Under the pieces are notes generated by a model. The model had not been told where the DNA came from. It made no database searches and saw only the letters and a program-made list of their open reading frames with translations. Positions 4,249 through 38,496 of a stretch of DNA of 64,000 bases are shown here, one piece after another (within the stretch, counting starts at the first letter, position 1; the number at the start of each line of letters is the position of its first letter). The position numbers were made by a program, and so were the translations under genes. Source of the DNA: a virus. Taxonomy: Duplodnaviria; Caudoviricetes. The stretch lies in IMG/VR virus record IMGVR_UViG_3300029288_000090, positions 62,557 through 126,556 of that record. The stretch is one strand, 5' to 3'.

Positions 4249-5017
4249 GAAGCACAACAAGAAGCCTGTAACTCCTAGGTAATTTAGGCCGCAGGCACAT
4301 TTTACGGAGACTGGTTATCTCCTCGGATGGTTGAGATGGACATTAAACTATATACCTGTCTGTTCTTAAGTTGTCCACTAGTGACAACCTTGTTGTGTTC
4401 CCGGGTGGCTCTTACTGAGTCCCCGGGTTGTTTACAATAAGGTATTAAATCAAATGCCTTTTGTTTTAGGCCCACGGATTACATCAATTCGTAGCAGGTT
4501 TAATGCTTTTTAAAATAAGTTCTCGGCGGTGCCAGACTGCGATTACCTCTATGCATCGCCGAGACATTACTGCGGAGTAGAGCAGTTGGTAGCTCGTTTG
4601 GCTCATAACCAAAAGGTCGCTGGTTCAAGTCCAGCCTCCGCTAGTAGCTACGTATCGGACCGGTCAACAGCCGATTGTTGACGGAGCCTCAGAAGCTCAC
4701 GTAGCTATTTGTTCTACTCACGAATTTTGTGGTGTGAGAGTGAGTAGCTTTGATAAGAATGTCAGCAACGGAAGTTGTGGACGGGCTCCGTGTCCAGCTG
4801 AGTAATTACGGAGTAGGTTGTTGATGAATACTAAAATGTTTATCAATGTAAAACGTCAGTCGCACAGCCGCTGTAATCCTTTGAAGCCTGGTATTCTTTC
4901 ATTATAGTTCTCTATCGTGCAACTATGCACAACGTCGCTAGTTTGATAGGATTGCCGGTTGATATTAAGCTGCTAGCACGAAACCGGATGTCAGGAATTA
5001 ACCTGTTAGAGAACTAT
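4249..5017 (+). ncRNA. array of structured non-coding RNA elements flanking the tRNA
   Basis: No ORF of 60 aa or more; consecutive domains closed by 8-12 bp helices with G-U pairs (4249-4400, 4400-4427, 4521-4564, 4644-4708, 4714-4747, 4755-4898, 4904-5017). Confidence 0.55.
4571..4643 (+). tRNA. tRNA-Met(CAT), initiator (fMet) type, CCA not encoded
   Basis: Cloverleaf TGCGGAG/CTCCGCT-A with a 1:72 mismatch, D stem GAGC/GCTC (A11:U24), anticodon arm TTTGG-CTCATAA-CCAAA, T arm GCTGG-TTCAAGT-CCAGC. Confidence 0.93.
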
Positions 5018-5327: not shown

Positions 5328-5843
5328 ATGATTACTGACTATTCAGAAAAAGAATTATTGATGTTACGATCTTTGGGAATTTCTAATATGCTATTTGAAA
5401 AGTTATCTATTTTGGATACTTACAAAGCAGCTATTGAGCATGTGTTTTTGTATAAAAAGACAGGTGCTGCAGTTGACTCTTTGAGGAGATGTTGGCAGGC
5501 TATATGTATTTGTAGTTTTCCTAGAAACACAGAAGAATTTGACAAGTTAATACAATTAGATTTTGTAGAAGAAGAGAAGGGAGTTACAAAAGTTAGTGAT
5601 AAGCTGTTAGATGAATTCATGGTTTGGATTCATGAAATCATACAATATTCTTATGCTCTTAAGATAGCTTTTCATTGTGATGGATTTCCTTTAAAAGTAG
5701 TTATAGAGAATCATCCGGAAGTTCTTTGCGGTTGTCCAATAGAAGATGAAACAATAGATGCATTCGAAAATCAACCTATTCGTTATATAGGAGATCGATT
5801 AGTATCTAAACTTTTGTGTGGATGTCCGATATTTATATGGTAG
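5328..5843 (+). CDS. hypothetical protein with two LCGCPI motifs
   Basis: 171 aa ORF, translationally coupled to neighbours. Confidence 0.65.
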   Translation: MITDYSEKELLMLRSLGISNMLFEKLSILDTYKAAIEHVFLYKKTGAAVDSLRRCWQAICICSFPRNTEEFDKLIQLDFVEEEKGVTKVSDKLLDEFMVWIHEIIQYSYALKIAFHCDGFPLKVVIENHPEVLCGCPIEDETIDAFENQPIRYIGDRLVSKLLCGCPIFIW

Positions 5844-6592
5844 ACGTATTTAGTATTTACAATTCAATAGATGGAGAGGTAAATGGATTCCATGGAATAG
5901 GGGAACCTACTACGTTTATTCGACTTAAGGGTTGTAATCTTCGGTGTAAGTTTTGTGACACCCAGTATGCTAATCAAGAAGGTGGTTTAGGTGAGTTGAC
6001 CATCGAAGATATTTTGAAGTATCCTTTGCTTAATAAGATTACGATTACGGGAGGAGAACCACTTCTTCAGAAGGATAGTCTTATATCATTATTAGAAAAA
6101 TTACTGATAGATACAAAAGAGCGTGCAGGGAAAAATATTAGTATAGAAACAAATGGCACTATCAGTATAAGAGATTTTGATGAGGATGGTCTTATAATAT
6201 GTTTCAGACGCAGTGATGAAGAATGTATTCCTAGATTACGATTTGTTGTGGATTATAAGTTGAATGCTTGTTTTGAGGAAGAGAACTTTAAGTTAATGAA
6301 TGAATTTGATGTTCTTAAATTTGTAGTTGGATCAGAAGAAGAGTATAAGTTTGCAAAGGAAGTGATTAGGAAACATAGACCAAGATGTTTGGTAGCTTTC
6401 AGTCCAGTTATGAATAAAGAATGGAGATCTATTAGTTTAGAACAAGGACGTAATTTCTATTCTATATTATTTGCCAAACAATTAGCAGAATGGGTAGTCA
6501 GGGATTCTAGCAGTTTACCATGTAGAACAATATTCAGTCTGCAGCTACATAAGGTGTTGTGGCCAGATTGTGATGGAACTAATGAACGCTGA
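5837..6592 (+). CDS. queE: 7-carboxy-7-deazaguanine synthase (radical SAM)
   Basis: SIDGE...GEPTTFIRLKGCNLRCKFCDT, ITITGGEPLLQ, IETNGT, SLQLHKVLW. Confidence 0.9.
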   Translation: MVDVFSIYNSIDGEVNGFHGIGEPTTFIRLKGCNLRCKFCDTQYANQEGGLGELTIEDILKYPLLNKITITGGEPLLQKDSLISLLEKLLIDTKERAGKNISIETNGTISIRDFDEDGLIICFRRSDEECIPRLRFVVDYKLNACFEEENFKLMNEFDVLKFVVGSEEEYKFAKEVIRKHRPRCLVAFSPVMNKEWRSISLEQGRNFYSILFAKQLAEWVVRDSSSLPCRTIFSLQLHKVLWPDCDGTNER

Positions 6593-7088
6593 TAAAGGAG
6601 ATACAGCAATGTCAGAACACGATGATAAATGTGAAGCTTTTGGACTTGATTTTAGTGAAACTGCCAAAGAATGTGAGAAGTGCAAAAATGCATATCCGGA
6701 GGAACATGCGGAATGCAGGATCTTGACGGAACAAAATAGGAAGAAGCAGGAGGAACCTAAATCTTCTCCTCCAAAGGAAGTTGAACCTGAGAAGAAAGAC
6801 AACTCTTCTGAAGAGAAAACTACAAAGGTTTCAGGAAGGAAAAAAGCCTTAAGTGTCAACGTCAAGCAAGTCTGTCGAGATATGATCGCGGGAGGAAAAG
6901 GAAAGGAGGAGATCCTAACAGATATTGCCAATCTTTATAAAGATGCTGGAAAAGAAGAAAAGTATGCACAATCCCGTGCCCGTGCAATTTATAATGACAT
7001 CAGTAAGGAGAAGCAAGGAGATGCCGGAGCAGAAGAAAAAACAGAATCAGATACAAATAATTCAACAGACAATAGTAGTCAGAAGTAG
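6570..7088 (+). CDS. hypothetical protein, N-terminal Cys cluster (likely start 6609)
   Basis: CEAFG...ECEKC...EC followed by a charged linker and a helical domain. Confidence 0.65.
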   Translation: MMELMNADKGDTAMSEHDDKCEAFGLDFSETAKECEKCKNAYPEEHAECRILTEQNRKKQEEPKSSPPKEVEPEKKDNSSEEKTTKVSGRKKALSVNVKQVCRDMIAGGKGKEEILTDIANLYKDAGKEEKYAQSRARAIYNDISKEKQGDAGAEEKTESDTNNSTDNSSQK

Positions 7089-7398
7089 ATTCCAGGCAGT
7101 CCATTCTTGGCCTGGATGTCCTTTTGAAGAAGTTTCGTTTTTAAGGAATCCTCATAGACATGAGTTTCATGTTGAAGCAGAATTTCTTATTGCAGAAGAT
7201 CGGCAGAAGGAATTCTTTATGATCAAGAAGGAACTGAACAATGTTTTGATAGAATTTTATGAAGGAAAAGATCTTGGATCTAAATCCTGTGAAACAATAG
7301 CTTTAGAACTTGCATTTGAGATGTCCGAACGTATAGGAGATGTTGCCAGGATTTCTGTATTTGAAGACGGAGAGAATGGTGCTCATGTCTACTGTTAA
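7021..7398 (+). CDS. dpdL: QueD-like T-fold protein of the DpdL type
   Basis: FLRNPHRHEF fits the LxxxHRHxF signature; KSCE and VFEDGENG; lacks the canonical QueD CxxxHGH. Confidence 0.72.
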   Translation: MPEQKKKQNQIQIIQQTIVVRSRFQAVHSWPGCPFEEVSFLRNPHRHEFHVEAEFLIAEDRQKEFFMIKKELNNVLIEFYEGKDLGSKSCETIALELAFEMSERIGDVARISVFEDGENGAHVYC

Positions 7399-7414
7399 CT
7401 TTTAAAGTAAGGAG

Positions 7415-8317
7415 TTGTATAGAGTGATTCAGCATCAAACGTTGCCTGGACCTTTTCGAGTAGAGTATCCAGAAGTTTATCAACTTGAAGTTTGCTCAGC
7501 TTGTCAACTTCATTGTAAGATGTGCCCACGTGAAAAGTATACGAGAAAAGATCCAAGGAACTTCATAGAGATGTCAGTTGTCAAGAAGTTGATTGCTGAA
7601 GATTCCTTTCGTGGAAGTTATTTTCTAGAGCTCCAAATGGCTGGTGAACCTTTACTTCATCCACATCTTCTAGATGTTGTTAGTGAGATAAAGAAAGCAT
7701 ACCCTAAATTGAAGTTAGGGTTAAGTACTAATGGGATGTTGATTAAGAGACAATTACAAGCTCTTATCCTTTTAGATTACATCACAGTAAGTATTGATTC
7801 CGTAGACGAGTATGAAGACATCCGTACAGGTGGAGATGTACGTGTGCTTAGGGAAGGCATAGGGCTCCTCTTGGACAATCTGGAATTTGAACGAACGGCT
7901 TTGGATTTACAAATTGTAGAATTAGGCGATTGGCAGTATCAGTTAGAAAAAGTTAAATCTATCTACACCAACACACCAATCAACGTTAGGACCGTTCCAG
8001 ATTGTTTTAGGACGGTGTTTGAGAAATCTGATCACTATCCTGTCAAGAGTGAGCCCTGTGTCAACCCATGGTGGTCAGTAAGTATTCAAGCAAATGGGAA
8101 CGTAGTCCCTTGTTGCTTTAGTTTCGGGGATGATCTTATTTACGGTAATGTCAAAGACACTTCTTTGGAGAAAATTTGGAGAACATCCTCTACGCTTGGT
8201 ATTCTTAGAGCATTCCATTCTACTGGAGTAGTACCTGAATTATGTAAGAAGTGTTATATGCGTTCTCCTGCTTTTTTGCATTGGAATATCTTCAGTACGT
8301 CACTGAAGAATAAATAA
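7415..8317 (+). CDS. radical SAM protein with SPASM/twitch domain
   Basis: CQLHCKMC, GEPLLHP, LSTNG; C-terminal PCVNPW..VSIQANGNVVPCC...GNV...LEKIW...CKKC; AAGGAG before a TTG start. Confidence 0.88.
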   Translation: MYRVIQHQTLPGPFRVEYPEVYQLEVCSACQLHCKMCPREKYTRKDPRNFIEMSVVKKLIAEDSFRGSYFLELQMAGEPLLHPHLLDVVSEIKKAYPKLKLGLSTNGMLIKRQLQALILLDYITVSIDSVDEYEDIRTGGDVRVLREGIGLLLDNLEFERTALDLQIVELGDWQYQLEKVKSIYTNTPINVRTVPDCFRTVFEKSDHYPVKSEPCVNPWWSVSIQANGNVVPCCFSFGDDLIYGNVKDTSLEKIWRTSSTLGILRAFHSTGVVPELCKKCYMRSPAFLHWNIFSTSLKNK

Positions 8318-8337
8318 TTTTATGTAAGGAGTCTATT

Positions 8338-8814
8338 ATGAAAAGGTCAAGTCTATGGTGTATTCTGTTTATCTTCAGTATCTGCACCATGTGTGTGCTG
8401 GCAGTTCTTCCGGAATCTGATATTAATCGGGACGGGATCGTCAATCTGGAAGATCATGCGATTATGGCCAACGAATGGTTAGAGACAGGTTCACAGAGTT
8501 CTGCAGAATTTCGTCCCATTTGTAAAGCAGGAAAATATACAGGAGATGGATATGTATTCCATCCTATAGAGCTTGGGATATATCCTGTCCATGTTGTTAT
8601 TCGATCCAGTGAGCAAGCGGAAGGAAGAACTGGTGTTGAAATGATTAACATCGCTCCCTCTGCAGGGGTGGATAATATTAAATGGAACCAATCTAGTTCC
8701 ACTATTAGAGATGATTGTGGATTTTATGCCACTGGATTTTTTGTTGAAGGAGACGCAGCTCCTGTTAATAAAGCAGGAGTAGAATACTTTTATGTGGTAT
8801 ATGGATACAAATGA
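8338..8814 (+). CDS. secreted/membrane protein with a dockerin-like EF-hand motif
   Basis: Hydrophobic signal peptide; SDINRDGIVNLEDHAIMANEWL; then GKYTGDG..IELGIYP.VVI module. Confidence 0.65.
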   Translation: MKRSSLWCILFIFSICTMCVLAVLPESDINRDGIVNLEDHAIMANEWLETGSQSSAEFRPICKAGKYTGDGYVFHPIELGIYPVHVVIRSSEQAEGRTGVEMINIAPSAGVDNIKWNQSSSTIRDDCGFYATGFFVEGDAAPVNKAGVEYFYVVYGYK

Positions 8815-9104
8815 CAAAGAAAAAACAATCTAATCCAGATCCTCCAAAGGGAAAGAGACCCAAACCTCCTCCAGGTCCTCCACGTATAGTATCTCCTAGT
8901 AGATGGTATATTGCTATGAATATGAAAAAACGGATGGACGTAGATTTTTTTGGTTCTCGAATGCCTATTTCTTTTCCGGAAGGATGGGTAGGTGTTCTTC
9001 CAGTATACTCTTCCTTAGATGTTTTACAAGAACAAGAAGGAGATAACTGTCCGTTCACTTTGATTACGGAAGGTAAAAAAGATGATTTACGTCGTTCCGA
9101 TTGA
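8811..9104 (+). CDS. hypothetical protein, proline-rich N-terminus
   Basis: 97 aa ORF with an ATGA overlap. Confidence 0.55.
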   Translation: MTKKKQSNPDPPKGKRPKPPPGPPRIVSPSRWYIAMNMKKRMDVDFFGSRMPISFPEGWVGVLPVYSSLDVLQEQEGDNCPFTLITEGKKDDLRRSD

Positions 9105-10098
9105 ACCATTAGAAGAAAGATACTCCAGTCAGTGGAGAGAATGGTTCTATAGATTTTTTACTACTAAGAATGTTTCTCATACGTTTATAGACGGAATTCC
9201 TTTGACATCTACAATTGAAAGAGGAGCTTTTTTAGATGTTTGTGGAACTAATTACTATAAAGCATCACAATTGATGCAAATTTGTAAGTTAGTTCATGAA
9301 GGATCTATTAAGGAAGATGACATATTTCTATTTATGGACCTTTGGTTTCCTGGATTAGAAATGTTAGCTTATATGAAGTACGCTTTGGATCTTAAGTTTA
9401 GGATTACAGGGATGCTTCATGCAGGAACATATGACGAAAATGATTTTCTGACAAAGCATAATATGGGTATTTGGGGAAAACCATTGGAGGAGTCTTGGTT
9501 CACTTTTGTGAATGCAATATTTGTAGCAACGAAGTACCATAAAAGATTGTTGGAGGACGCCCGACAATGTTTTTCAAATTCTATTTACGTTACAGGATTT
9601 CCTATTTATCCTGATTTTGTTTCTAGAAATTTTAAGAAAGAAAATATCATTATTTTTCCACATCGTTTAGACAGAGAAAAGAGACCTGATAAGTTTGATA
9701 AGCTTAAATATGCTTTACAATGTAAATATCCAAATTGGCAATTTATTAAGAGTAAGGAAGTTTGTAAGACTAAGCATGAGTACTATAATCTTTTGGAAAG
9801 GGCTAAGGTAGCAATCTCTTTTGCAGAGCAGGAGACATGGGGTATAGCTATGCAGGAGGCATTATTCTGTGGATGTATTCCTATTGTTCCTGATCGATTG
9901 AGTTATGAAGAAATGTATCCAAAATGTTTTAGGTATTATAATTTTAGTACATCCACAAATAGTGCTGTTTCTCTTGTAGAATGGGCAATGAAAGAGTACG
10001 ATATCATTAAACGTACATCGTGGGAAACAACTAAAGACGAGTTGGAAATGAAGGGAAGAAATGCTCTAGATTCTATTTTCTATCATCTCTTGAGATAA
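9082..10098 (+). CDS. glycosyltransferase (GT-B, GT4-like)
   Basis: IIFPHRLDREKRPD, YYNLLERAKVAISFAEQETWGIAMQEA..CGCIPIVPD.LSY.E. Confidence 0.88.
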   Translation: MIYVVPIEPLEERYSSQWREWFYRFFTTKNVSHTFIDGIPLTSTIERGAFLDVCGTNYYKASQLMQICKLVHEGSIKEDDIFLFMDLWFPGLEMLAYMKYALDLKFRITGMLHAGTYDENDFLTKHNMGIWGKPLEESWFTFVNAIFVATKYHKRLLEDARQCFSNSIYVTGFPIYPDFVSRNFKKENIIIFPHRLDREKRPDKFDKLKYALQCKYPNWQFIKSKEVCKTKHEYYNLLERAKVAISFAEQETWGIAMQEALFCGCIPIVPDRLSYEEMYPKCFRYYNFSTSTNSAVSLVEWAMKEYDIIKRTSWETTKDELEMKGRNALDSIFYHLLR

Positions 10099-10110
10099 GG
10101 AGAGAGTTAC

Positions 10111-11265
10111 GTGATTTCTGGTGTTCAACGAATATACATGGCTAATATGTTGACGTCTGGTTCAGTCAAGGATCGGGAACATTTTCTTTCTGTTTTAATG
10201 AAGGGGGAGATGCATACTTTAGAGACATATTGGAAGACAAATGCTGTTAAGAAGCTTTTGGATGAGAACCCAAAGTTAGTCATATTCTTGGATTCTGGAG
10301 CTCACAGTTTATTGAATGTTCATGCCAGGAACCAAGCAGAAGAGGAAGGTCAGGAGAAGTCAGATCATATTGAAGTTGATTTAGATGACTTTTATGAATT
10401 AGATACCAATACTAGAGTATTTCATTCTGCAAAGAAGTTTTGGATGCAACATACTAAAGTGACCAAATTTGCCGGTATGAAGAGTGGGGCCTCCAAACTT
10501 ATGAAGTCCTTTGACTTTGCTGATAAGAAAGAGGTAAAGGATTATTTAAATACTTATATAGAGTTTTGTCATAAGTATAAAACACAATGTGATCCTTATG
10601 TCAATTTGGATATTATTTTTAATCCAGAGAAGACATGGGAGAATCAAAAGTATATGGAGTCCCATGGACTTCAACCTCTTCCTGTTTTTCATTTTGGAGA
10701 AGATTTTAAATGGTTAGATAAGTATGTTGATAATTATCCTTATATAGGTATATCAGGATTAGGTTCGGATATTCAGAAGAAATCGTATTTTCAATCCTTT
10801 GGGGATAAAGTATTTAAACGATTAAGTCAATCTAAACAGATGATTAAGGTGCATGGATTTGCAGCCACATCTTTTGACTTAATAAAGCGATATCCTTGGT
10901 ATAGTATAGATTCAACTACATGGATTAAGCATGCAGCATACGGATCCGTTATGGTTCCTCCATATGAAAATGCAACAGGAAATTTTCTATATGCTGCTAT
11001 ACCTACAATTGTTCGTGTGAGTAGTCGAATCAACGTCAAGCAGACTAGAACTAAGAAGGGAGGATCATTCAGAGATACATTTACAGGGAAGGAACTGGAG
11101 ACCATTCTTCATTACTTCGAGGTTGCAGGAGTAGAAGAAGGTAAGCTTTCTGAAAGTCTTTTTGAAAGATGTAAGGCTAATCTTCATTATTATAAACAAC
11201 TTCAAAGGATAGGTGTTCAGGTTGATGAAGACGTTTATCTAAATAGTTCTAAGAGTTTCTTTTGA
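10111..11265 (+). CDS. dpdA: DNA guanine transglycosylase (TGT-like DpdA)
   Basis: IFLDSGAHS, NLDII, PLPVFHFGE, YIGISGL, KVHGFA, RYPWYSIDSTTW; located in a cluster with queE. Confidence 0.85.
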   Translation: MISGVQRIYMANMLTSGSVKDREHFLSVLMKGEMHTLETYWKTNAVKKLLDENPKLVIFLDSGAHSLLNVHARNQAEEEGQEKSDHIEVDLDDFYELDTNTRVFHSAKKFWMQHTKVTKFAGMKSGASKLMKSFDFADKKEVKDYLNTYIEFCHKYKTQCDPYVNLDIIFNPEKTWENQKYMESHGLQPLPVFHFGEDFKWLDKYVDNYPYIGISGLGSDIQKKSYFQSFGDKVFKRLSQSKQMIKVHGFAATSFDLIKRYPWYSIDSTTWIKHAAYGSVMVPPYENATGNFLYAAIPTIVRVSSRINVKQTRTKKGGSFRDTFTGKELETILHYFEVAGVEEGKLSESLFERCKANLHYYKQLQRIGVQVDEDVYLNSSKSFF

Positions 11266-12660: not shown

Positions 12661-15600
12661 ATGGCACAAAAAGCTTTTTTTGTAGACGAAAGAGAACTCC
12701 TAGCTATTGAGCAGGAGAAACAAAAACAAGAGAAGAAGAAATTATCTAAATCTTCTAGGACCTCCAAAAAGAAGATATATAACTGCTCTACTTGCGGATT
12801 AGATAAAACCTGTCGCAGTCCTGATATGCAAAGATATGGAAAATGTAGAGCAGGAATTATGTTTGTTGGTATAGCTCCTGGAGCTGAAGAAGATAAAAAC
12901 GATATTCCTTTTGTAGGACCTTCTGGAGAATTCTTACGTCAGACATTAGTAGATTTAAATATAGATTTAGATGAGGATTGTTCAAGAACTAATATTGTTC
13001 GCTGTAAACTTCCAAAGAATAGAAATCCTAAAAGGGACGAAATCCTGAGCTGTCAATCCAAACTGATTCAAGATATAGAAGAAGTCCGTCCAAGATTGAT
13101 TATAACGTTGGGAAAAGAACCTACAAACGTTTTGTTTAGATATTTGGGAAAAGGAACTCCAGGACTTGGTTTGACACATGGATTAGTTTTTCCTATTCAA
13201 AAATGGAAGTGTTGGTTATCTAGTACGTTTCATCCAGCAGCTATCTTGAGAGAAAGAGATGGTCGTCATCAGAAGGTAGTAGGAAGAGATAAAATATTTG
13301 CCTTTGATATAGATGATGCTATATTTTATTCTGAAAGAGAGTTTCCAAAGATTTTAAGTAGGGAAGGATGTATCCTTGTTCCAGATTCAGAAAGATGTAT
13401 AGAAGTTTTGGAAAGGATGTCTCAGTCGAAAGATCCTGTTTCGTTCGATTATGAATGTACCTGTATTTCGGCTTTTGATAAAGATGCTAGGCTACTAACG
13501 GTAGGTGTCAGTAATGATCCGGAAATAGGGTATTGTATTCCTATTGGAATGAATAGATGGAATGAAGTAGAAGTAGCTCACGTTTACCTGGCTTTGCGTA
13601 AATTTTTAGCCAGTGATGCTCCAAAAGTTGTTCAGAACTACAATATGGAGGAGCTTTGGAGTAGGATTCATGTAGGGCAGGGTATGAATAATTTATGCTG
13701 TGATACTATGGTAGCTCATCATGTTGTTTACTGTAGAAAGAAAACAGCAGATTTGGATTTTCAAGTTGGGCTTTTAACGGGAGATGACTACAAGGGAATG
13801 GTAAATACTAAAAGAATGTCAGAGGAACCTATTGAGAAAATAGGAATATATAATCCTTTAGATTCCAGATACACACTTCTTTCCTACAGAACTAATATAA
13901 AGAAGATGGATAGTGGACTTCGTGAATTCAATGATCTTCTGACCAGGGGTGTTGTTACTATGGCTAATCTAAAAGAACGAGGAGTCAGAATAGATCAACG
14001 CTTGCTAAATACGTTAAAGGATAATGCACAGGACGAAGTAAAAGAACTATCAGATTCTCTTATGCTTTGTAAAGCATGCAGGAAGTATGAAAAAGAAACT
14101 GGAAGTGCTTTAAACGTTCGTTCGGGGGATCAATTAGCAAAGCTCTTATTTACGATCTATGGAGATAAATCTATAAAGACAACAAGCGGAGGAAAACCTT
14201 GTACGGATGCAGAAGTTATTGAGAAGCTTTATGCTAAAACGAAAAAGGAGGAGATTCGAACTTTTCTGAAGATTCTTATAGATCTTAAAAAGGTGCAAAG
14301 TTTTTCTGATAAGATAGATAATTTTAGGAAACATATTTGTTCTGATGGGAAGATCCATCCTTCATTTCATTTGGATGTCGCAGAGACATACAGGAGTTGT
14401 ATTGCTGAAGGAACTAATATAGAAGTAGTTAGAGATGTTAATAGATATCCTAAAGGTATTCCTATAGAACATGTTAAAGAAGGAGATTATGTTTATTGCT
14501 ATAATAGTAATTTAGATGTCTGTATTAAAAAAGTTTTATGGGCAGGAAAAACAGGTCATAAAGAAATTATTCGTCTTCATTGGGAATCTTCTAGAGGAAC
14601 AAAAGGTTATTTAGACGTAACACCAGAACACAAAGTTAGATTAGTAGACGGAACTTATCTAGAAGCTAAGTATTTGAACAATAGAAATGTAAGAAGTGGT
14701 AAACAAAATAAGCACGTTCCAGGAGTCCAGGTTCTATCACTTGGGCGAATGGGAGATAATGTTGTACAAACTGGTAAGCATTTTGGTTTGTTGGATCATC
14801 GTCTTGTGTATGAAAATGTAAACAATACTATTTTACCCAAACATATGGTTATCCATCATATTGACGGTAATCATTATAATAACGTACCTTCTAATCTTAT
14901 AGCAAAGGCTAGAAGTGATCATTCACTATTACATTGTACTTTTAATGAAGAGAGTAGAAAGAAAGCGTTATCTAATAGAAGAAAAAATGTCGAATTAGGT
15001 TTAACTAAATTAGGAAGAACTGGCGAAGAAAACGGGAATTGGATTTCGTTTTCTAAATTTTCTTTCTTGCGATTACTTGCTGAACATTCTGGAAAAGTAA
15101 CGTCTATTGATTTAGAACATGGAACTATACAATCTAAAGCGAAACTTTTTTCTATAAATCTTAAAAATGTTAAGGATAGATACACAAAGGAGGGTTACTA
15201 TATCTCTTTGGGTAAATTAAAGGGATTATATACTAAAGGACATGACTATGCTTGTCATGTTCTTCGTGTCAATCCTTATAAATTGCGTAGATTGTATGAA
15301 CAAAGAGATTTAGAATGGAATACTCCTAGGAAGTGGGCAAATCAATATGGAACGTTTAGTGTTAATAATCACAAAATTGTTGACGTTGAGATCTTGAATA
15401 CTTCTGTCAATGTTTACGATATAGAAGTTGAGGGGGAACATAATTTTATAGCAAATGAAATATGTGTACATAACTCATCTTCAGATCCTAATTTTCAAAA
15501 CGTTCCTAAACACGATGATCTTCTTAAACTAATCAGGGAGTGCATTATTCCGAGTCCGGGTAATGTATTCTTGGAGGTTGATTATGACGGATTAGAGGTT

Positions 15601-16263
15601 CGTGGAATAGCAATGAACTCCAATGACAGAACTCTAATCAATGAGATTAAAGGAGGAGACTCTTCTGATACACATCGTTTATGGGCATCTAAGATTTTTG
15701 AGGTTCCATTTGCAAAGGTAGATAAGGAGCAACGATTTTTAGGAAAGAACAAGTTTGTATTTCCTTCTTTTTACGGAGCACAGCCGTTTTCCATTGCTAA
15801 TTCTCTGAAGATGGAGGAGGCATATATTAAAGGGAAATGGGATGAATTTTGGAGACTTTACAAAGACGTCAAGAAATGGCAAGATAACGTCAGAGCGTTT
15901 TACGAAGAGTATGGGTATATAAGAGGTTTATCAGGATATAGGAGATTTGGACCGCTTTCTGTAGAACAGCTATATAATACGCCAGTTCAAGGAATTTCAT
16001 TCCATCTTGCATTAGATGCTTTAATTAGAATAGATGGGATGTTAATAGGAAAGTTAAGACGGCAAGGACTTAGGGCTGTTCCTATTGTTCAAGTTCATGA
16101 TAGTATTCTCTTTGATTGTCCTATCAATGAGATCCAAGAGGTTGTAGGAGTTGTCTCTGAAATTATGAAATCCAAACGGTTTGAATGGCAATTAGACGTT
16201 CCTCTTAGTGTCAGTTGGGAAAAAGGAGAGGATTGGCTGAATATGAAAAAACTTGTAGTATAA
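12661..16263 (+). CDS. polA: family A DNA polymerase with N-terminal uracil-DNA glycosylase (family 4-like) domain, 3'-5' exonuclease and an intein
   Basis: UDG: CSTC..C, IMFVGIAPG.EED...PFVGPSG, TNIVRC, TFHPAA. Exonuclease: FDYEC. Polymerase: SSSDPNFQN, DYDGLEVR, R..GK..F..FYG, VHDSI. Confidence 0.93.
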   Translation: MAQKAFFVDERELLAIEQEKQKQEKKKLSKSSRTSKKKIYNCSTCGLDKTCRSPDMQRYGKCRAGIMFVGIAPGAEEDKNDIPFVGPSGEFLRQTLVDLNIDLDEDCSRTNIVRCKLPKNRNPKRDEILSCQSKLIQDIEEVRPRLIITLGKEPTNVLFRYLGKGTPGLGLTHGLVFPIQKWKCWLSSTFHPAAILRERDGRHQKVVGRDKIFAFDIDDAIFYSEREFPKILSREGCILVPDSERCIEVLERMSQSKDPVSFDYECTCISAFDKDARLLTVGVSNDPEIGYCIPIGMNRWNEVEVAHVYLALRKFLASDAPKVVQNYNMEELWSRIHVGQGMNNLCCDTMVAHHVVYCRKKTADLDFQVGLLTGDDYKGMVNTKRMSEEPIEKIGIYNPLDSRYTLLSYRTNIKKMDSGLREFNDLLTRGVVTMANLKERGVRIDQRLLNTLKDNAQDEVKELSDSLMLCKACRKYEKETGSALNVRSGDQLAKLLFTIYGDKSIKTTSGGKPCTDAEVIEKLYAKTKKEEIRTFLKILIDLKKVQSFSDKIDNFRKHICSDGKIHPSFHLDVAETYRSCIAEGTNIEVVRDVNRYPKGIPIEHVKEGDYVYCYNSNLDVCIKKVLWAGKTGHKEIIRLHWESSRGTKGYLDVTPEHKVRLVDGTYLEAKYLNNRNVRSGKQNKHVPGVQVLSLGRMGDNVVQTGKHFGLLDHRLVYENVNNTILPKHMVIHHIDGNHYNNVPSNLIAKARSDHSLLHCTFNEESRKKALSNRRKNVELGLTKLGRTGEENGNWISFSKFSFLRLLAEHSGKVTSIDLEHGTIQSKAKLFSINLKNVKDRYTKEGYYISLGKLKGLYTKGHDYACHVLRVNPYKLRRLYEQRDLEWNTPRKWANQYGTFSVNNHKIVDVEILNTSVNVYDIEVEGEHNFIANEICVHNSSSDPNFQNVPKHDDLLKLIRECIIPSPGNVFLEVDYDGLEVRGIAMNSNDRTLINEIKGGDSSDTHRLWASKIFEVPFAKVDKEQRFLGKNKFVFPSFYGAQPFSIANSLKMEEAYIKGKWDEFWRLYKDVKKWQDNVRAFYEEYGYIRGLSGYRRFGPLSVEQLYNTPVQGISFHLALDALIRIDGMLIGKLRRQGLRAVPIVQVHDSILFDCPINEIQEVVGVVSEIMKSKRFEWQLDVPLSVSWEKGEDWLNMKKLVV
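14398..15474 (+). mobile_element. intein (359 aa) with HNH homing endonuclease in polA
   Basis: Begins CIAEGT, block B VTPEHKV, HNH HRLVYE..IHHIDGNHYNNVPSNL, ends VYDIEVEGEHNFIANEICVHN/S; removal restores TYRSSSSDPNFQN. Confidence 0.93.
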
Positions 16264-22915: not shown

Positions 22916-23844
22916 GGCTTTTACTTTTAGGCGACACACATTTTGAAGAACGAGGTCCAGATCGTAGAAAGGACGATTACTTTTTAACACAGTTATGTAA
23001 ATTGAAGCAGATATTTAGTATTTACGGAGAAGAGAAGTGTGATGCTATTCTTCAAGTAGGGGATTTCTTTAACAGTCCATACGTTTCTAATTATGTTAAA
23101 TCTAACTTAATTACAGATTTGAAACATTGGGGAAATATAATGTACTGTATTTTTGGTCAGCATGATATATTCGGGCATGCCTGGCAAACTTTTGAAAGGA
23201 GTCCACTTGCAGTTTTGGAAGCCGCAGCAGTTCTTAAAGTAGTTAGAGATCCTTGTACTAGAATTGAAGGGAAAAGTGGTGATTGTGTTTATGTTTATGG
23301 AGCTTGCTTTGGATGTGAGGTTCCAAAAGTAGAATCTGAACATACTTTTAATATACTTTTAGTTCATGATATGATAGGAGATAGAGAATTATATCCAGGA
23401 CAGGAGTTAAAAGGTCCGCGAGATTACCTTAGAAAGTATCCTAATTATGACTTGATTGTTTGTGGGGACTACCATTATACATTCAAAGATTCACATCAGG
23501 GAAGAATTATTTGTAATCCTGGATGTTTAATGAGGAAAACCATAGGAGAGTTTGACCTTCAACATAAACCGGGAGTCTTTATTTTTGATACGGATAGTAA
23601 GGATTTGAAGTGGATTTTATTAGATGTTGAACCAGTGGAAGATGTTTTTGATTTTACAAAAACAGAATCAATAAAAGAAGATTCTTCTAAAGTTGTTGAG
23701 TTTATAGAAAAGTTGCGGGCAAATAATGAGGATAGAGCTGCATGGAGAGAAGCGTTAAGAGTTGTTTTGGAGGAGAAAAAAGTTTGTTCCAGAGTTAGAA
23801 CGTTGTTAGACAGCGTTATTGCGTATACATTGGAGAACAAGTGA
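22912..23844 (+). CDS. sbcD: SbcD/Mre11/gp47 metallophosphoesterase nuclease
   Basis: GDTH, GDFF, GQHD, VHD, GDYH, NPGCL. Confidence 0.9.
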   Translation: MRLLLLGDTHFEERGPDRRKDDYFLTQLCKLKQIFSIYGEEKCDAILQVGDFFNSPYVSNYVKSNLITDLKHWGNIMYCIFGQHDIFGHAWQTFERSPLAVLEAAAVLKVVRDPCTRIEGKSGDCVYVYGACFGCEVPKVESEHTFNILLVHDMIGDRELYPGQELKGPRDYLRKYPNYDLIVCGDYHYTFKDSHQGRIICNPGCLMRKTIGEFDLQHKPGVFIFDTDSKDLKWILLDVEPVEDVFDFTKTESIKEDSSKVVEFIEKLRANNEDRAAWREALRVVLEEKKVCSRVRTLLDSVIAYTLENK

Positions 23845-23845
23845 T

Positions 23846-24100
23846 ATGTCAGATACAAGCAAAATCGTAGATAGTTTAAAGCGAACGGCTAATAAGCTTC
23901 AAGATCTCAAGGAGAGACAAAGTACGTTGAAAGGAAGAAAAGATTCCATTCTGGAACAGTTAAAGGAGCGTTTTTCTGTTAGTTCTGTGGAAGAAGCGGA
24001 AAAACTTCTTAAGGAAAAAGAGAGTGAACTAGTCCGAAAAGAAGAAGAGGCTCAACAACTTGCGGATGATATGCAGGAAATTATGGATAAGGTAGTATAA
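23846..24100 (+). CDS. coiled-coil protein (possible middle segment of the split SbcC)
   Basis: All-helical heptad sequence between sbcD and the SbcC C-half. Confidence 0.6.
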   Translation: MSDTSKIVDSLKRTANKLQDLKERQSTLKGRKDSILEQLKERFSVSSVEEAEKLLKEKESELVRKEEEAQQLADDMQEIMDKVV

Positions 24101-24103
24101 CTT

Positions 24104-24706
24104 ATGAGTAAGTTTTCAGATTTTCTAGCTGTATCAAAGGATAGATTGTCAAATTATAGGAAAAGGAAGAAGGATCTTCAGGAAAGCCTTGTTGAGGGGG
24201 AGCAGATGTTCAACGATATTCTTGAGTGTCGGGATATTATGAACATAGTGGGGTCTGTTTGTCAGGAACAGACTAAGAATGTAGTAGAAGATCTTGTTTC
24301 CGAAGCACTTAAAGTTGTATTTGGAGAAACTCATTCTTTTGAGATGGAGTCTAAAATAGTTCGGAATCAGCCAGAAATCTACATGTATGTAGTTAGAAAT
24401 GGTGTTCGTTACAATCTTCGTGAGGAGTTAGGTGGAGGCGTAGCTGATCTTGTTTCTTTTGTACTAAGGATTGTTCTTTGGTCCATTACTACTCCACGTT
24501 CAGCTAATATTATGATTTTGGATGAACCAGGAAAGTTTATTTCCAAAGATCTTCAATCTGCCTTTGGTGATATTATAAAAGAGTTGAGTACTATGTTGGG
24601 GATTCAGTTTATCATAGTCAGTCACGAACAGGAGTTAATAGCCACTGCTGATGTTACCTATGAAGTAGCATTAGAAGGAGATATTAGCCATGTTACAAGG
24701 ATCTAA
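24104..24706 (+). CDS. sbcC: SbcC/Rad50 ATPase, C-terminal half
   Basis: Signature LGGGVAD, Walker B MILDEP, H-loop IVSH. Confidence 0.85.
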   Translation: MSKFSDFLAVSKDRLSNYRKRKKDLQESLVEGEQMFNDILECRDIMNIVGSVCQEQTKNVVEDLVSEALKVVFGETHSFEMESKIVRNQPEIYMYVVRNGVRYNLREELGGGVADLVSFVLRIVLWSITTPRSANIMILDEPGKFISKDLQSAFGDIIKELSTMLGIQFIIVSHEQELIATADVTYEVALEGDISHVTRI

Positions 24707-25262
24707 AACTTGGATTATTCAACCTCTCATAGATGGATCTACATTAGATTGTGGATTAAAGTTACTTGCAGATAGCATTAAAGAAAAACTAACGGAAAAG
24801 AACATTTTTCTTCCTATACTCAAGGGAGGAGCTTTTGTAGCTCACGAACTTTTCCATAGATTTCCTCTAAAAGAATCTGATAAAATTGGATATATAGGAG
24901 TTCGTAGCTACCTAGAAGGGGAGATTAGTTCTGGGGCTGACATATTTGTATACAATGAACTATTTTTGAAAGAAGAAGATTTTGAAGATGCTACTGTTTT
25001 TGTTATAGACGATGTCTGTGAAACAGGAAGGACTTTACTAACTATACGAAGAATGTTGTTAGAAAAATTTAAGTGTAAGAATATAATTACTATAGCCCTT
25101 GTTAATAAGAATGATACAATTAGGAAAGTTGAAGTTGGGGAAGGTCCTGATATGTTTGGATTTGGTTATAATGGAGGACGTTTTCTAGTAGGGTGTGGAA
25201 TGGATTTTAAGGAGATGTATAGAGGACTTCCTTTTATAGGTCATTTGGTTTTAGGAGAATGA
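24690..25262 (+). CDS. purine phosphoribosyltransferase (HPRT-like)
   Basis: ILKGG, VRSY, PRPP loop VIDDVCETGRTL, FLVGCGMD...YRGLP. Confidence 0.85.
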   Translation: MLQGSKTWIIQPLIDGSTLDCGLKLLADSIKEKLTEKNIFLPILKGGAFVAHELFHRFPLKESDKIGYIGVRSYLEGEISSGADIFVYNELFLKEEDFEDATVFVIDDVCETGRTLLTIRRMLLEKFKCKNIITIALVNKNDTIRKVEVGEGPDMFGFGYNGGRFLVGCGMDFKEMYRGLPFIGHLVLGE

Positions 25263-25263
25263 T

Positions 25264-25701
25264 ATGATTGTTACAAAAACTTATTCAGTAGATTATGCTC
25301 ATCGATTAAAGGATCATCCAGGAAAATGTAAAAATCTTCATGGACATACTGGAGTTTTTACGATTACTTTTAGTGGTTCAGTTAAAGAAGATGGGATGAT
25401 CATTGATTTTGGCACCTTTGGTTGGCTTGAGAAGTTAGTAGGTTTGTTTGACCATACTATTCTTCTTCAAGAAGGCGATCCTATACTGGACTTGTTATTT
25501 CCTGAAGATAAGGGAGAATTTTTTGATCTTAACTTTGTTAGTTTCAAAAATCCTCCGACAGCAGAAGTAATAGTGGAAGATCTTGTTACTCTTATTGAGA
25601 ATGATGGTATTTATTCCTCTATGGATAGAAATGCTTTAAGGCTCGTTCGTATTGATTTTGCAGAAACTCCTGGAAATGTTGTTAGTTGGATTAAGGAGTA
25701 A
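25264..25701 (+). CDS. queD: 6-carboxy-5,6,7,8-tetrahydropterin synthase
   Basis: AHRL..HPGKCKNLHGHT, GMIIDFG, FDH, PTAE, ETP. Confidence 0.9.
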   Translation: MIVTKTYSVDYAHRLKDHPGKCKNLHGHTGVFTITFSGSVKEDGMIIDFGTFGWLEKLVGLFDHTILLQEGDPILDLLFPEDKGEFFDLNFVSFKNPPTAEVIVEDLVTLIENDGIYSSMDRNALRLVRIDFAETPGNVVSWIKE

Positions 25702-30707: not shown

Positions 30708-31533
30708 TGATATCCTACAACTATTAAGGGTTAGGCATAACGGGGATGTATTCATTCCTGAATGCAATGCTAACTATGCTAGGATAGATGCATGGGCTAT
30801 GAAAAAGTCTTGGTCTCATCCTTTACTAACTGGGTATGAGATTAAGGTTAATCGATCAGACTTTTTAAATGATAAGAAGTGGACTGCATATCTTCCTTAT
30901 TGTAATGAACTTTACTTTGCTTGTCCTACTCACTTAATAGAAGTAAATGAAGTGCCCGAAAATTGTGGGCTTCTTTGGACTTCAAAAACAGGGACTAGAT
31001 TATATACAAAGAAGAAAGCTCCTTATAGAAAAGTAACTATTCCTGAAACGTTTTGGAGAAGTATTCTTTTTTCAAGGGTAAAGATCATTTCTGAAATATC
31101 AAATAAACATGGAGAGAAAGAATTTTGGAAAGAGTGGTTAGAAGAAAGGGAATTAGATCATAGGTTTGGTTATCATGTTTCTTTATCCATTAGAAAAAGA
31201 GTAGAAGAAGAGATAGAAAAAGTTCAAAGAGAAAATAGGATTCTTCAAAATCAAATAGAAACCTTTGAAGAGATTAAGAAGATTTTAGTTGAATTAGGTT
31301 TGGAGGGTTGTAGTAGTTGGAAACTGCATCGTCAGGTATCAGATAAAGTCAAGGAGTTTAGGAGAGGATATACAGACGATTTGATAAGAAGAGGAGAATC
31401 TCTACAAATATATTTAAAATCCTTTCTGGAAGAAGTGAAAAGATTAGAACAACTTGGAAAAGATGTAGACGATGGATCAACAACACAAGAAGAAGATGGA
31501 CAGGGTCAACAATTGCCAACAACTTCAGAATGA
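30697..31533 (+). CDS. MmcB-like PD-(D/E)XK nuclease-fold protein
   Basis: RIDAWA, GYEIKVNRSDFLND.KW..YL.YCNELYF..P, GLL. Confidence 0.7.
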   Translation: MNANDILQLLRVRHNGDVFIPECNANYARIDAWAMKKSWSHPLLTGYEIKVNRSDFLNDKKWTAYLPYCNELYFACPTHLIEVNEVPENCGLLWTSKTGTRLYTKKKAPYRKVTIPETFWRSILFSRVKIISEISNKHGEKEFWKEWLEERELDHRFGYHVSLSIRKRVEEEIEKVQRENRILQNQIETFEEIKKILVELGLEGCSSWKLHRQVSDKVKEFRRGYTDDLIRRGESLQIYLKSFLEEVKRLEQLGKDVDDGSTTQEEDGQGQQLPTTSE

Positions 31534-31792
31534 TTTAGACGAAGCAATTAGAGCAGTTATTGAAAAGCATAAACCAACTTATTCTGAATTGTTTTTTGCT
31601 CTTCTTTCTGTTCATAGGAGTTGGGCAGATATGATGTTGGAGGATGAAAACGATGGCATTATGGTTTGTCCAGTACAAGAAATTTCTGGAGATCTCGAAA
31701 GAGATAAGAAATTTTACGATAATTTGAAGAAGGAATTTGATTTGAGCAATACTATAACTCCACTAAGAAGAAGGAGATTTTTCAATGAGTAA
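31472..31792 (+). CDS. hypothetical protein
   Basis: 106 aa ORF. Confidence 0.55.
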   Translation: MDQQHKKKMDRVNNCQQLQNDLDEAIRAVIEKHKPTYSELFFALLSVHRSWADMMLEDENDGIMVCPVQEISGDLERDKKFYDNLKKEFDLSNTITPLRRRRFFNE

Positions 31793-32093
31793 TACGTTTA
31801 AAATATATGCCCTTATTTTTATTTTTGCATTTTTAGGAAGTTGGTTATGTATATTTATAGTAAATCTTTTAGAGGTAAAGGATAAATGTAATCCAGATTG
31901 TATAGTAAAAGACTACATATATAGTACTCCTTGTGAAGCCAAACAGGAAGTTCCTCTGGATCAATTTACTATAAGAAGTAAGCAAGATTTAGACTGTCTA
32001 ACTTCTATTCTATTAGTTAGACATGAACCAACTCAAGTATCATATGTCGTACTAACTCACCCACGTGGTGTTGCTATTACAAAAGCAGAATAG
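31785..32093 (+). CDS. membrane-anchored protein
   Basis: N-terminal transmembrane helix. Confidence 0.6.
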   Translation: MSNTFKIYALIFIFAFLGSWLCIFIVNLLEVKDKCNPDCIVKDYIYSTPCEAKQEVPLDQFTIRSKQDLDCLTSILLVRHEPTQVSYVVLTHPRGVAITKAE

Positions 32094-38305: not shown

Positions 38306-38334
38306 ATTATAACCTATAATTTTATAAAAATCAA
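38306..38334 (-). promoter_or_regulatory. sigma70-type promoter TTGATT-N17-TATAAT
   Basis: Minus strand -35 at 38334-38329 and -10 at 38311-38306, ahead of the leftward small-gene cluster. Confidence 0.75.
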
Positions 38335-38496
38335 GGACATTTTCTTAAATACCTCTTTTATAACTCTTTATTTTATAAGCATTTATAAAATATGTACTTT
38401 TTAAAGGCATACTAAAACAACCTTTTCCCCTTGTTTATTAAATGAAAAAGGAGAGGATAAATGGGGTATACGTATGTCTAAGGAGACGGTGTAAAT

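Follow-up and report, generated by a model that had tools for sequence, protein, structure and literature searches.

A QueC-less phage 7-deazaguanine cluster linked to a glycosyltransferase and a BtrN-like radical SAM enzyme suggests a glycosylated deazaguanine in DNA

Introduction

In Cellulophaga phage phiST, guanine in DNA is replaced at about 100% by unsubstituted 7-deazaguanine (as the deoxynucleoside, dDG) through FolE, QueD, QueE, DpdL and the transglycosylase DpdA3 (Cui et al, 2023, PMC10516641). In that work DpdL is defined by the signature LxxxHRHxF, its activity as a decarboxylase of 7-carboxy-7-deazaguanine (CDG) to 7-deazaguanine is a proposal and not a demonstration, and the word glycosyl is absent from the main text (Cui et al, 2023, PMC10516641). 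Here we describe a cluster of this general kind in a 64,000-nucleotide stretch of phage DNA (the window; bases 62557–126556 of IMG/VR record IMGVR_UViG_3300029288_000090, a complete genome of 126,556 bp with direct terminal repeats). Like phiST, the window phage has a QueC-less, CDG-terminated pathway, a DpdL with LxxxHRHxF, a MazG-like gene nearby and a cluster placed beside replication genes. Unlike phiST, which has neither a glycosyltransferase (GT) nor a second radical S-adenosylmethionine (SAM) enzyme and makes plain dDG with DpdA3, it carries both of these genes together with a DpdA1-like enzyme.

Several other systems offer partial comparisons. Escherichia phages CAjan and 9g (Queuovirinae, DpdA1) share FolE, QueD and QueE with the window phage, and the CAjan DpdA is 32% identical to that of the window. 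Published descriptions have both encoding QueC and inserting preQ0 (G+ in 9g), and neither was among the phage records matching our GT, DpdL or twitch-type radical SAM queries. Acidovorax phage ACP17, Pseudomonas jumbo phage PA5oct, Xanthomonas phage X1 and Synechococcus phage BUCT-ZZ01 hold a GT of the same family (23–33% identity) beside DpdA, DpdL and QueE, but their transglycosylase is DpdA2-like with a C-terminal extension and they have no twitch radical SAM enzyme. The alpha- and beta-glucosyltransferases of phage T4 are likewise phage GT-B enzymes that add sugar to a modified DNA base against restriction; in their case, however, the base is the pyrimidine 5-hydroxymethylcytosine (5hmC), its hydroxyl is made at the nucleotide level, and there is no sequence relation to the window GT beyond the fold. 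The eukaryotic enzymes QTMAN/GTDC1 and QTGAL are alike in concept, as GTs that decorate a 7-deazaguanine derivative in nucleic acid, but they act on the cyclopentenediol of queuosine in tRNA; the window phage has no preQ1 or queuine route, and QTMAN_N (PF12038) had no match in the GT or the genome even at E ≤ 10. We know of eight 7-deazaguanine DNA bases, none with a sugar, and to our knowledge the sugar-decorated DNA bases described so far are pyrimidines (5hmC, 5-hydroxymethyluracil (5hmU) and 5-hydroxycytosine). A literature search, with incomplete coverage and few subscription journals, found no report linking a GT or radical SAM enzyme to DpdA or DpdL. For PA5oct, the DNA resists cleavage at several G-containing restriction sites and a modified G has been inferred, its identity not being established (PMC12191111).

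Results

The glycosyltransferase and radical SAM enzyme are genomically coupled to DpdA and DpdL

The initial annotation of the window placed queE, an HRH-type QueD paralogue, a second radical SAM gene, a GT-B gene and dpdA in one co-directional block, and all of these genes are there, close-packed on the + strand. It also treated the GT and the second radical SAM enzyme as members of the deazaguanine pathway, and it named a lack of co-occurrence with dpdA in relatives as grounds for dropping that idea. Related loci were examined. Scans of IMG/VR with the single GT or radical SAM sequence gave no matches and profile scans were needed; the GT profile yielded at least 586 loci. Our co-occurrence set consisted of the best-scoring 80 of these, 26 radical SAM loci and further related loci, with the QueE and twitch radical SAM hidden Markov models (HMMs), which cross-match, separated only by a length cut of at least 280 aa. 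Among the resulting 100 non-duplicate GT loci, DpdA was present in 90, DpdL in 91 and both in 85, and most loci without a partner gene were truncated contigs. The GT was directly adjacent to dpdA in 41/100, often overlapping it. Of the IMG/VR radical SAM loci, 24/26 also held GT, DpdL and DpdA, and the enzyme usually abutted the GT. The relatives do show co-occurrence with dpdA, the idea was not refuted, and the neighbourhoods (85/100 and 24/26 loci) strongly support pathway membership over chance proximity.

The same association was seen outside IMG/VR, where the family has 848 homologues in the protein database and occurs in 23 cultured-phage records (tblastn). ACP17 has the order FolE-x-DpdA-GT-DpdL-QueE with overlapping stops and starts, PA5oct has DpdA-GT-DpdL...QueE, and X1 has GT-DpdA-DpdL-QueE; the module is also kept in Burkholderia phage BCSR5 (GT 26% identity) and in BUCT-ZZ01 (23%). 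A search for QueC found none in ACP17 or PA5oct and a single sub-threshold PP-loop match in X1, elsewhere in the genome. Three long metagenomic contigs with differing polymerases (PolB, or PolA fused to a uracil-DNA glycosylase (UDG) domain) have QueD-QueE-FolE-...-radical SAM-GT with a (candidate) DpdA close downstream. The GT accompanies two transglycosylase lineages, the DpdA1-like one of the window and the DpdA2-like one of ACP17 and PA5oct; the latter has a C-terminal extension, and within its first 255 residues it shares 34% identity with the enzymes of Vibrio nt-1/VH7D.

The GT also lies with a DpdA2-like gene on alphaproteobacterial chromosomes, mostly of isolates: Methylobacterium (L133–L135), Devosia (L136), Pelagibacterium (L137), Ochrobactrum (L139) and Azospirillum (L144). 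Between the two genes, the Devosia, Pelagibacterium and Ochrobactrum loci encode a membrane protein that is YhhQ/Vut_1-like but divergent, with scores that straddle the family cut-off. The Methylobacterium islands add DpdL, and the Devosia locus is near a serine recombinase. Within the flanks of these islands we detected no FolE, QueD, QueE or phosphoribosyltransferase (PRT) and, outside Methylobacterium, no DpdL, so the GT-DpdA pair persists without them. By gene content, these loci look like a minimal, mobile, GT-linked island for deazaguanine DNA modification. The edge of the family is marked by more distant GT4 relatives in PhiXhv-15 and Desulfobulbaceae, which occur in other contexts (beside GlmS/BshB-like genes in PhiXhv-15, or without deazaguanine genes) and were placed outside it.

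Taken together, comparative sequence analysis showed that a predicted intact CDG pathway, DpdL, an apparently intact DpdA, an apparently intact GT4-type enzyme and a twitch radical SAM enzyme are genomically coupled. The basis for each of these assignments is given below.

The glycosyltransferase is a GT4-like enzyme with a conserved acceptor domain

The GT-B assignment was upheld by a PF00534 match above the cut-off and by an AlphaFold2 model built on 33 homologues (predicted local distance difference test (pLDDT) 92). The model has two Rossmann domains in GT-B arrangement. Its best structural matches are retaining GT4 enzymes, first BshA (Z 26.1, root-mean-square deviation 2.9 Å over 305 residues) and after it sucrose-phosphate synthase, PglA and PimA, with Z > 20 to about 30 GT4 enzymes; Foldseek concurs, and T4 alpha-glucosyltransferase is a mid-list match (Z 19). 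The structural neighbours of this model, and of the radical SAM model described below, share 10–22% identity with the query. In the EX7E donor motif, E251 and E259 are invariant in the 33 sequences and at least 95% conserved in 105; R195 and K200, which bind phosphate, likewise do not vary in the 33. Positions conserved at ≥95% in the 105 sequences number 22 in the N-terminal acceptor domain, many of them aromatic, and 20 in the donor domain. The acceptor domain is therefore as conserved as the donor domain, which argues for one common acceptor. The family is acidic (median net charge -7 in 105 sequences) and virus-specific, the ESM Atlas clusters that hold it being 85–100% viral.

5hmC and 5hmU were considered as acceptors and rejected: the genome has ThyX, and a ThyA-type hydroxymethylase (PF00303) was not found in it, which leaves no hydroxymethylated pyrimidine, and no rival acceptor pathway, for the GT.

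The genome encodes a CDG-terminated pathway and DpdL

The lack of queC and queF in the window was borne out across the complete 126.6-kb genome, in which neither QueC nor QueF was found. FolE, for which a search of the remaining genome had been suggested, lies just outside the window, about 3.4 kb upstream (8.1e-60; genome 57992–59164, minus strand; locus L001:1489–2661). An HNH endonuclease domain is fused to its N-terminus, and it has a weak Ros/MucR zinc-finger match. Its start is overlapped by a gene for a MazG/PRA-PH-like pyrophosphohydrolase, a neighbour that recalls the phiST cluster. Canonical QueD is encoded downstream of the block, as had been noted, with the motif CKNLHGH. From their predicted activities FolE, QueD and QueE can make CDG, and without QueC or QueF the pathway stops there; the QueC-less, CDG-terminated route first read from the window is thus supported by the gene content of the complete genome.

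For the QueD paralogue, the best start is the ATG at 7021, preceded by an AAGGAG site. Its FLRNPHRHEF fits LxxxHRHxF, which replaces the CxxxHGH of QueD. The DpdL assignment was confirmed by this motif, by the phrog_17812 match and by co-occurrence with FolE, QueD, QueE and DpdA without QueC. DpdL orthologues 30–48% identical adjoin the GT in six related loci (L002–L007), and nearly all tabulated DpdL matches in GT loci have LxxxHRHxF, the few exceptions retaining the HRH core. In two phages without the GT, Vibrio phage Bakedbeans (L008:5185–6366) and Chryseobacterium phage MA9V-3 (L009:5449–6333), DpdL makes up the C-terminal region of a 290–390-aa protein, fused to an additional N-terminal domain.

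A gene for a hypoxanthine-guanine phosphoribosyltransferase (HGPRT)-like enzyme ends 1 nt before queD. PRT homologues were present in 32/80 GT loci, and in some of these (L032, L036) the gene lies between dpdL and the GT; in BUCT-ZZ01 the gene, annotated as XGPRT, lies between queE and queD. The window enzyme probably recycles guanine released by DpdA to GMP and then GTP, the pathway precursor. Alternatively, by analogy with TubE and ToyH of tubercidin and toyocamycin biosynthesis, it may be a deazapurine phosphoribosyltransferase.

The transglycosylase retains its catalytic residues

Residues invariant in the alignment with the CAjan DpdA include D61 (of the DSG motif), D167, H194, K246, H248 and D267 (S-x-D-S), and the window DpdA is accordingly predicted to be a catalytically intact enzyme of the tRNA-guanine transglycosylase (TGT) family. 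The initial annotation had drawn attention to DSGAHS in place of DSGAFS/Y. The motif is present (residues 61–66, followed by an insert of about 65 aa), but it is not peculiar to this phage: the DpdA clade has H or P at this position, and F was seen in the single QueC-type DpdA1 used for comparison, that of CAjan (DSGAFS). As a sign of altered substrate specificity, the residue is a reasonable hint and nothing more. The order DpdA-small ORF-sliding clamp-family A polymerase is common to the window phage and CAjan. The window DpdA ends in SKSFF (11245–11265) and that of CAjan in MELF, and several relatives end in GFGL, GFFEI or DFFEL-type sequences; such ends would be compatible with binding to the clamp.

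The second radical SAM enzyme is twitch-type and BtrN-like

The second radical SAM enzyme had been described as having a SPASM domain. Its radical SAM nature holds, with the site C27/C31/C34 (CxxxCxxC) invariant in the family, while for the C-terminal region twitch (BtrN-like, with a single auxiliary cluster) is more exact. Only five C-terminal cysteines are conserved (C212, C230, C231, C274 and C277), and five rather than seven places the enzyme outside the seven-cysteine definition of SPASM, despite its PF13186 match. Four cysteines of the family align with those of the single auxiliary 4Fe-4S cluster of BtrN, and BtrN is also the best match of the family profile in the PDB (1.7e-18; next anSME, 4.9e-9) and of the AlphaFold2 model (pLDDT 92.6; Z 18.8). 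SuiB, ChlB, anSME, SkfB, DesII and BlsE follow at Z 17–18 (DesII and BlsE at 17.4–17.5), and SpeY is also among the structural neighbours. The cysteine pattern and the profile and model matches to BtrN point to a small twitch-type enzyme without a peptide-recognition domain. The two enzymes are alike in being small radical SAM proteins with CxxxCxxC, one auxiliary cluster and aligned cysteines; they differ in sequence (about 22% identity) and in setting, the window enzyme being part of a phage DNA modification cluster. BtrN, the 2-deoxy-scyllo-inosamine dehydrogenase of butirosin biosynthesis, oxidises a cyclitol C-H, and DesII, BlsE and SpeY tailor sugars.

Only about 75 close homologues make up this compact family, and no member was found in any cultured phage searched. 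The nearest relative is on an 8.1-kb contig of a metagenome-assembled genome with the order QueE-DpdL-radical SAM-gap-GT, where the GT is 69% identical to that of the window. From its nearest relatives and the sugar-type enzymes of sister clusters described below, we infer that the twitch enzyme may oxidise or otherwise tailor a sugar or cyclitol C-H.

Sister clusters carry variable sugar-type accessory genes

Among the closest IMG/VR relatives of the GT, the slot between dpdL and the GT holds instead a radical SAM protein of about 450 aa with an N-terminal Rossmann-like domain (16 loci); the sugar diol-dehydratase AprD4 is among its best matches in the PDB and in NCBIfam. In one locus (L011, 5102–7324) this gene is interrupted by an intein, which hints that it is important to those phages. 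Other lineages have, inside the span of the core cluster, Gfo/Idh/MocA and zinc-dependent alcohol dehydrogenase oxidoreductases, a HIT protein, a small protein resembling cytidylyltransferases and, in L037, a second GT. A constant core with variable carbohydrate-type accessories is the pattern expected of a glycan-bearing modification with lineage-specific tailoring.

Outside the window, the phage genome holds a large + strand sugar-tailoring cluster at 18–42 kb (L126, L127; e.g. 23745–24479, 31240–31938 and 38322–39038). It encodes three short-chain dehydrogenases/reductases of GDP-mannose-dehydratase/epimerase type, an RmlC-like epimerase, a thiamine pyrophosphate-dependent E1 with a transketolase-like subunit, a B12-binding radical SAM protein, an FkbM methyltransferase, cupins, a GT-A, a GT2 and an MptE-like protein. 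NTP_transferase was not found in the genome. This cluster might provide the DpdA-linked GT with an unusual sugar donor, or it might serve the glycosylation of virions.

Layout of the block and genome setting

The coordinates of the block and of the downstream PRT-queD pair are given in Table 1. The start of the block had been placed at 5837, which is an internal ATG of queE; the gene itself was correctly recognised. Three further ORFs lie among the genes named initially. In the 172-aa ORF, the C-terminal region of about 65 aa recurs in small ORFs directly upstream of DpdL in two loci (L005 and L006; blastp, 41–43% identity over 51–66 aa). For the 158-aa and 97-aa ORFs between the radical SAM gene and the GT, no counterpart was found in any related cluster. 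On this comparison we treated both as lineage-specific inserts, and the 158-aa ORF is probably outside the pathway. A megablast search of the block against 50,697 phage records gave 0 matches.

Table 1. Predicted features of the modification block and the downstream PRT-queD pair, in window coordinates.
Feature	Coordinates	Strand	Supporting matches
QueE (7-carboxy-7-deazaguanine synthase, radical SAM)	5816–6592	+	phrog_2076 9.7e-30; TIGR04349 3.9e-35; PF04055 1.5e-11
Charged 172-aa ORF, no role assigned	6570–7088	+	no Pfam or PHROG match
DpdL-type QueD paralogue, T-fold	7021–7398	+	FLRNPHRHEF; phrog_17812 3.6e-15; Pfam PTPS 2.7e-4 (weak)
Twitch-type radical SAM enzyme, BtrN-like	7415–8317	+	PF04055 2.1e-12; PF13186 (SPASM) 1.7e-12
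158-aa ORF, N-terminal hydrophobic segment	8338–8814	+	weak dockerin-like repeat, PF00404 0.0076, below cut-off
97-aa Pro/Lys-rich ORF	8811–9104	+	no family match
GT-B (GT4-like) glycosyltransferase	9082–10098	+	PF00534 8.9e-07, 29.0 bits (cut-off 26.4)
DpdA, DpdA1-like	10111–11265	+	phrog_887 4.2e-44
HGPRT-like phosphoribosyltransferase	24690–25262	+	TIGR01203 2.3e-21; PF00156 1.2e-14
Canonical QueD (6-carboxytetrahydropterin (CPH4) synthase)	25264–25701	+	PF01242 1.9e-20; TIGR03367 8.1e-17; CKNLHGH

The block (5816–11265) starts a long + strand replication module, in which DpdA is followed by a small ORF, a sliding clamp, a UDG-PolA with an HNH intein, a clamp loader, a gp32-like protein and RecA. 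Just upstream of the block, a tRNA-Met gene (CAT; 4571–4643) lies in the gap of about 1.1 kb that separates divergent gene blocks. In the family A DNA polymerase (12661–16263) the UDG domain is N-terminal, and the intein with its HNH endonuclease interrupts the protein. UDG-PolA fusions were recently reported from phages with T-modified genomes (PMC13697223); the present genome nevertheless has ThyX and no hydroxymethylase.

Discussion

We propose that the window phage uses a QueC-less pathway to replace guanine in its DNA with a glycosylated 7-deazaguanine, with lineage-specific tailoring of the sugar, and we put the probability of this reading at about 0.5. In such a pathway FolE, QueD and QueE would make CDG, at which synthesis would end, and DpdL, by its proposed activity, would decarboxylate CDG to 7-deazaguanine. 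DpdA would exchange guanine in DNA for the deazaguanine base, and the GT would move a sugar from a nucleotide sugar onto the 7-deazaguanine core, either on the free base before insertion or on the DNA right after exchange. Eukaryotic TGT inserts the bulky base queuine, which offers a parallel for a DpdA that would insert a pre-glycosylated base. The BtrN-like twitch enzyme would then oxidise or tailor that sugar or its nucleotide-sugar donor, and the HGPRT-like enzyme would return the released guanine to the GTP pool. The purpose would be to shield phage DNA from restriction and other nucleases.

Several points weigh against this proposal. The main weakness is chemical: neither 7-deazaguanine nor CDG has an obvious hydroxyl on which a GT4 enzyme could act. 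An unusual linkage would therefore be required, such as a C-glycoside at the electron-rich C7/C8, an N-glycoside at N2 or an acyl glycoside, and we know of no precedent in DNA for any of these. The acidic GT (median -7) is unlike a DNA-binding enzyme, although it could equally act on the free base. In the models, the GT4 and twitch matches are generic, and a shared fold is no proof of function. The separate sugar cluster has GTs of its own, which suggests that not all sugar genes of this phage are DNA-related. The co-occurrence counts rest on home-built HMMs, longest-ORF calls and flanks of 8–10 kb. Finally, the DpdL-bearing phage phiST produces plain dDG without a GT, which shows that a sugar is not a requirement of DpdL clusters (PMC10516641).

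In an unlikely alternative, the final base is plain dDG or dCDG (the CDG deoxynucleoside) and the GT and radical SAM enzyme help to make or deliver it, leaving no sugar in the DNA. A transient glycosyl ester or CDG adduct might enable decarboxylation, or the radical SAM enzyme might itself be the decarboxylase. In favour of such a helper role, 7-deazaguanine has no obvious glycosyl acceptor, and ACP17 dpdL and dpdA alone failed to yield dDG in E. coli (PMC10516641). DpdL decarboxylation is itself a proposal, and the radical SAM decarboxylase BlsE is among the structural neighbours of the twitch enzyme (Z 17.4). Against these points, phiST reaches about 100% dDG without a GT or a second radical SAM enzyme, and many GT clusters, those of ACP17 and PA5oct among them, do without a second radical SAM enzyme altogether. 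Some alphaproteobacterial islands keep the GT and DpdA with no DpdL detected in their flanks, and the oxidoreductases and second GT of sister clusters are more in keeping with a glycan that persists than with a transient one.

That the GT instead acts on a small molecule of the pathway, a pterin intermediate or a deazapurine nucleotide from the HGPRT-like enzyme, strikes us as improbable. Precedents exist in the cyanobacterial tetrahydrobiopterin (BH4) glucosyltransferase and in TubE/ToyH, DpdL is a T-fold protein of the pterin/purine-binding kind, the GT family is acidic, and the PRT gene recurs in the clusters, sometimes between dpdL and the GT. BH4 glucosyltransferases are also among the top Foldseek matches (9v0l at rank 2, 5zes at rank 38), but these do not exceed the matches to dozens of other GT4 enzymes, and a pterin role was accordingly set aside as a candidate and kept as a minor rival only. 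Moreover, it is with DpdA, an enzyme that acts on DNA, that the GT is paired most tightly and persistently, even in the minimal bacterial islands, and a route at the nucleotide level would leave DpdA unnecessary. It is very improbable that the GT and radical SAM enzyme serve virion or host-surface glycosylation and adjoin the modification genes by chance or shared early expression. In favour of this reading are the further large sugar-tailoring cluster of this phage, the frequent presence in phages of GTs with other uses, and the separation of the radical SAM gene from the GT by two lineage-specific ORFs, of which one has a hydrophobic N-terminal segment. Against it, co-occurrence with DpdA/DpdL (85–91% of 100 loci) spans PolA or PolB phages, two DpdA subfamilies and GT identities down to 23%, the radical SAM enzyme is linked in 24/26 loci, and GT4 relatives from other contexts fall clearly outside the family.

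Returning to the glycosylated base, we tentatively extend the proposal to a family of sugar-bearing 7-deazaguanines, possibly present in many environmental phages, PA5oct, ACP17 and some alphaproteobacterial islands, in which the dedicated GT would be coupled to DpdA while lineage-specific radical SAM enzymes (BtrN-like or AprD4-like) and oxidoreductases diversify the sugar. If correct, this would be the first glycosylated purine-type DNA base and a new chemical class of DNA modification, resting on a conserved GT coupled to DpdA across at least 586 viral contigs. The failed reconstitution of the ACP17 DpdL/DpdA pair would then be explained, and the G modification of PA5oct, a jumbo phage of relevance to therapy, would gain a candidate identity. 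New enzymes would come with it, namely a GT directed at the base or at DNA and radical SAM enzymes that tailor sugars, and the finding would bear on the evasion of restriction, CRISPR and type IV defences and on sequencing artefacts in phage genomics. Since PA5oct and ACP17 are cultured carriers, the idea is directly testable.

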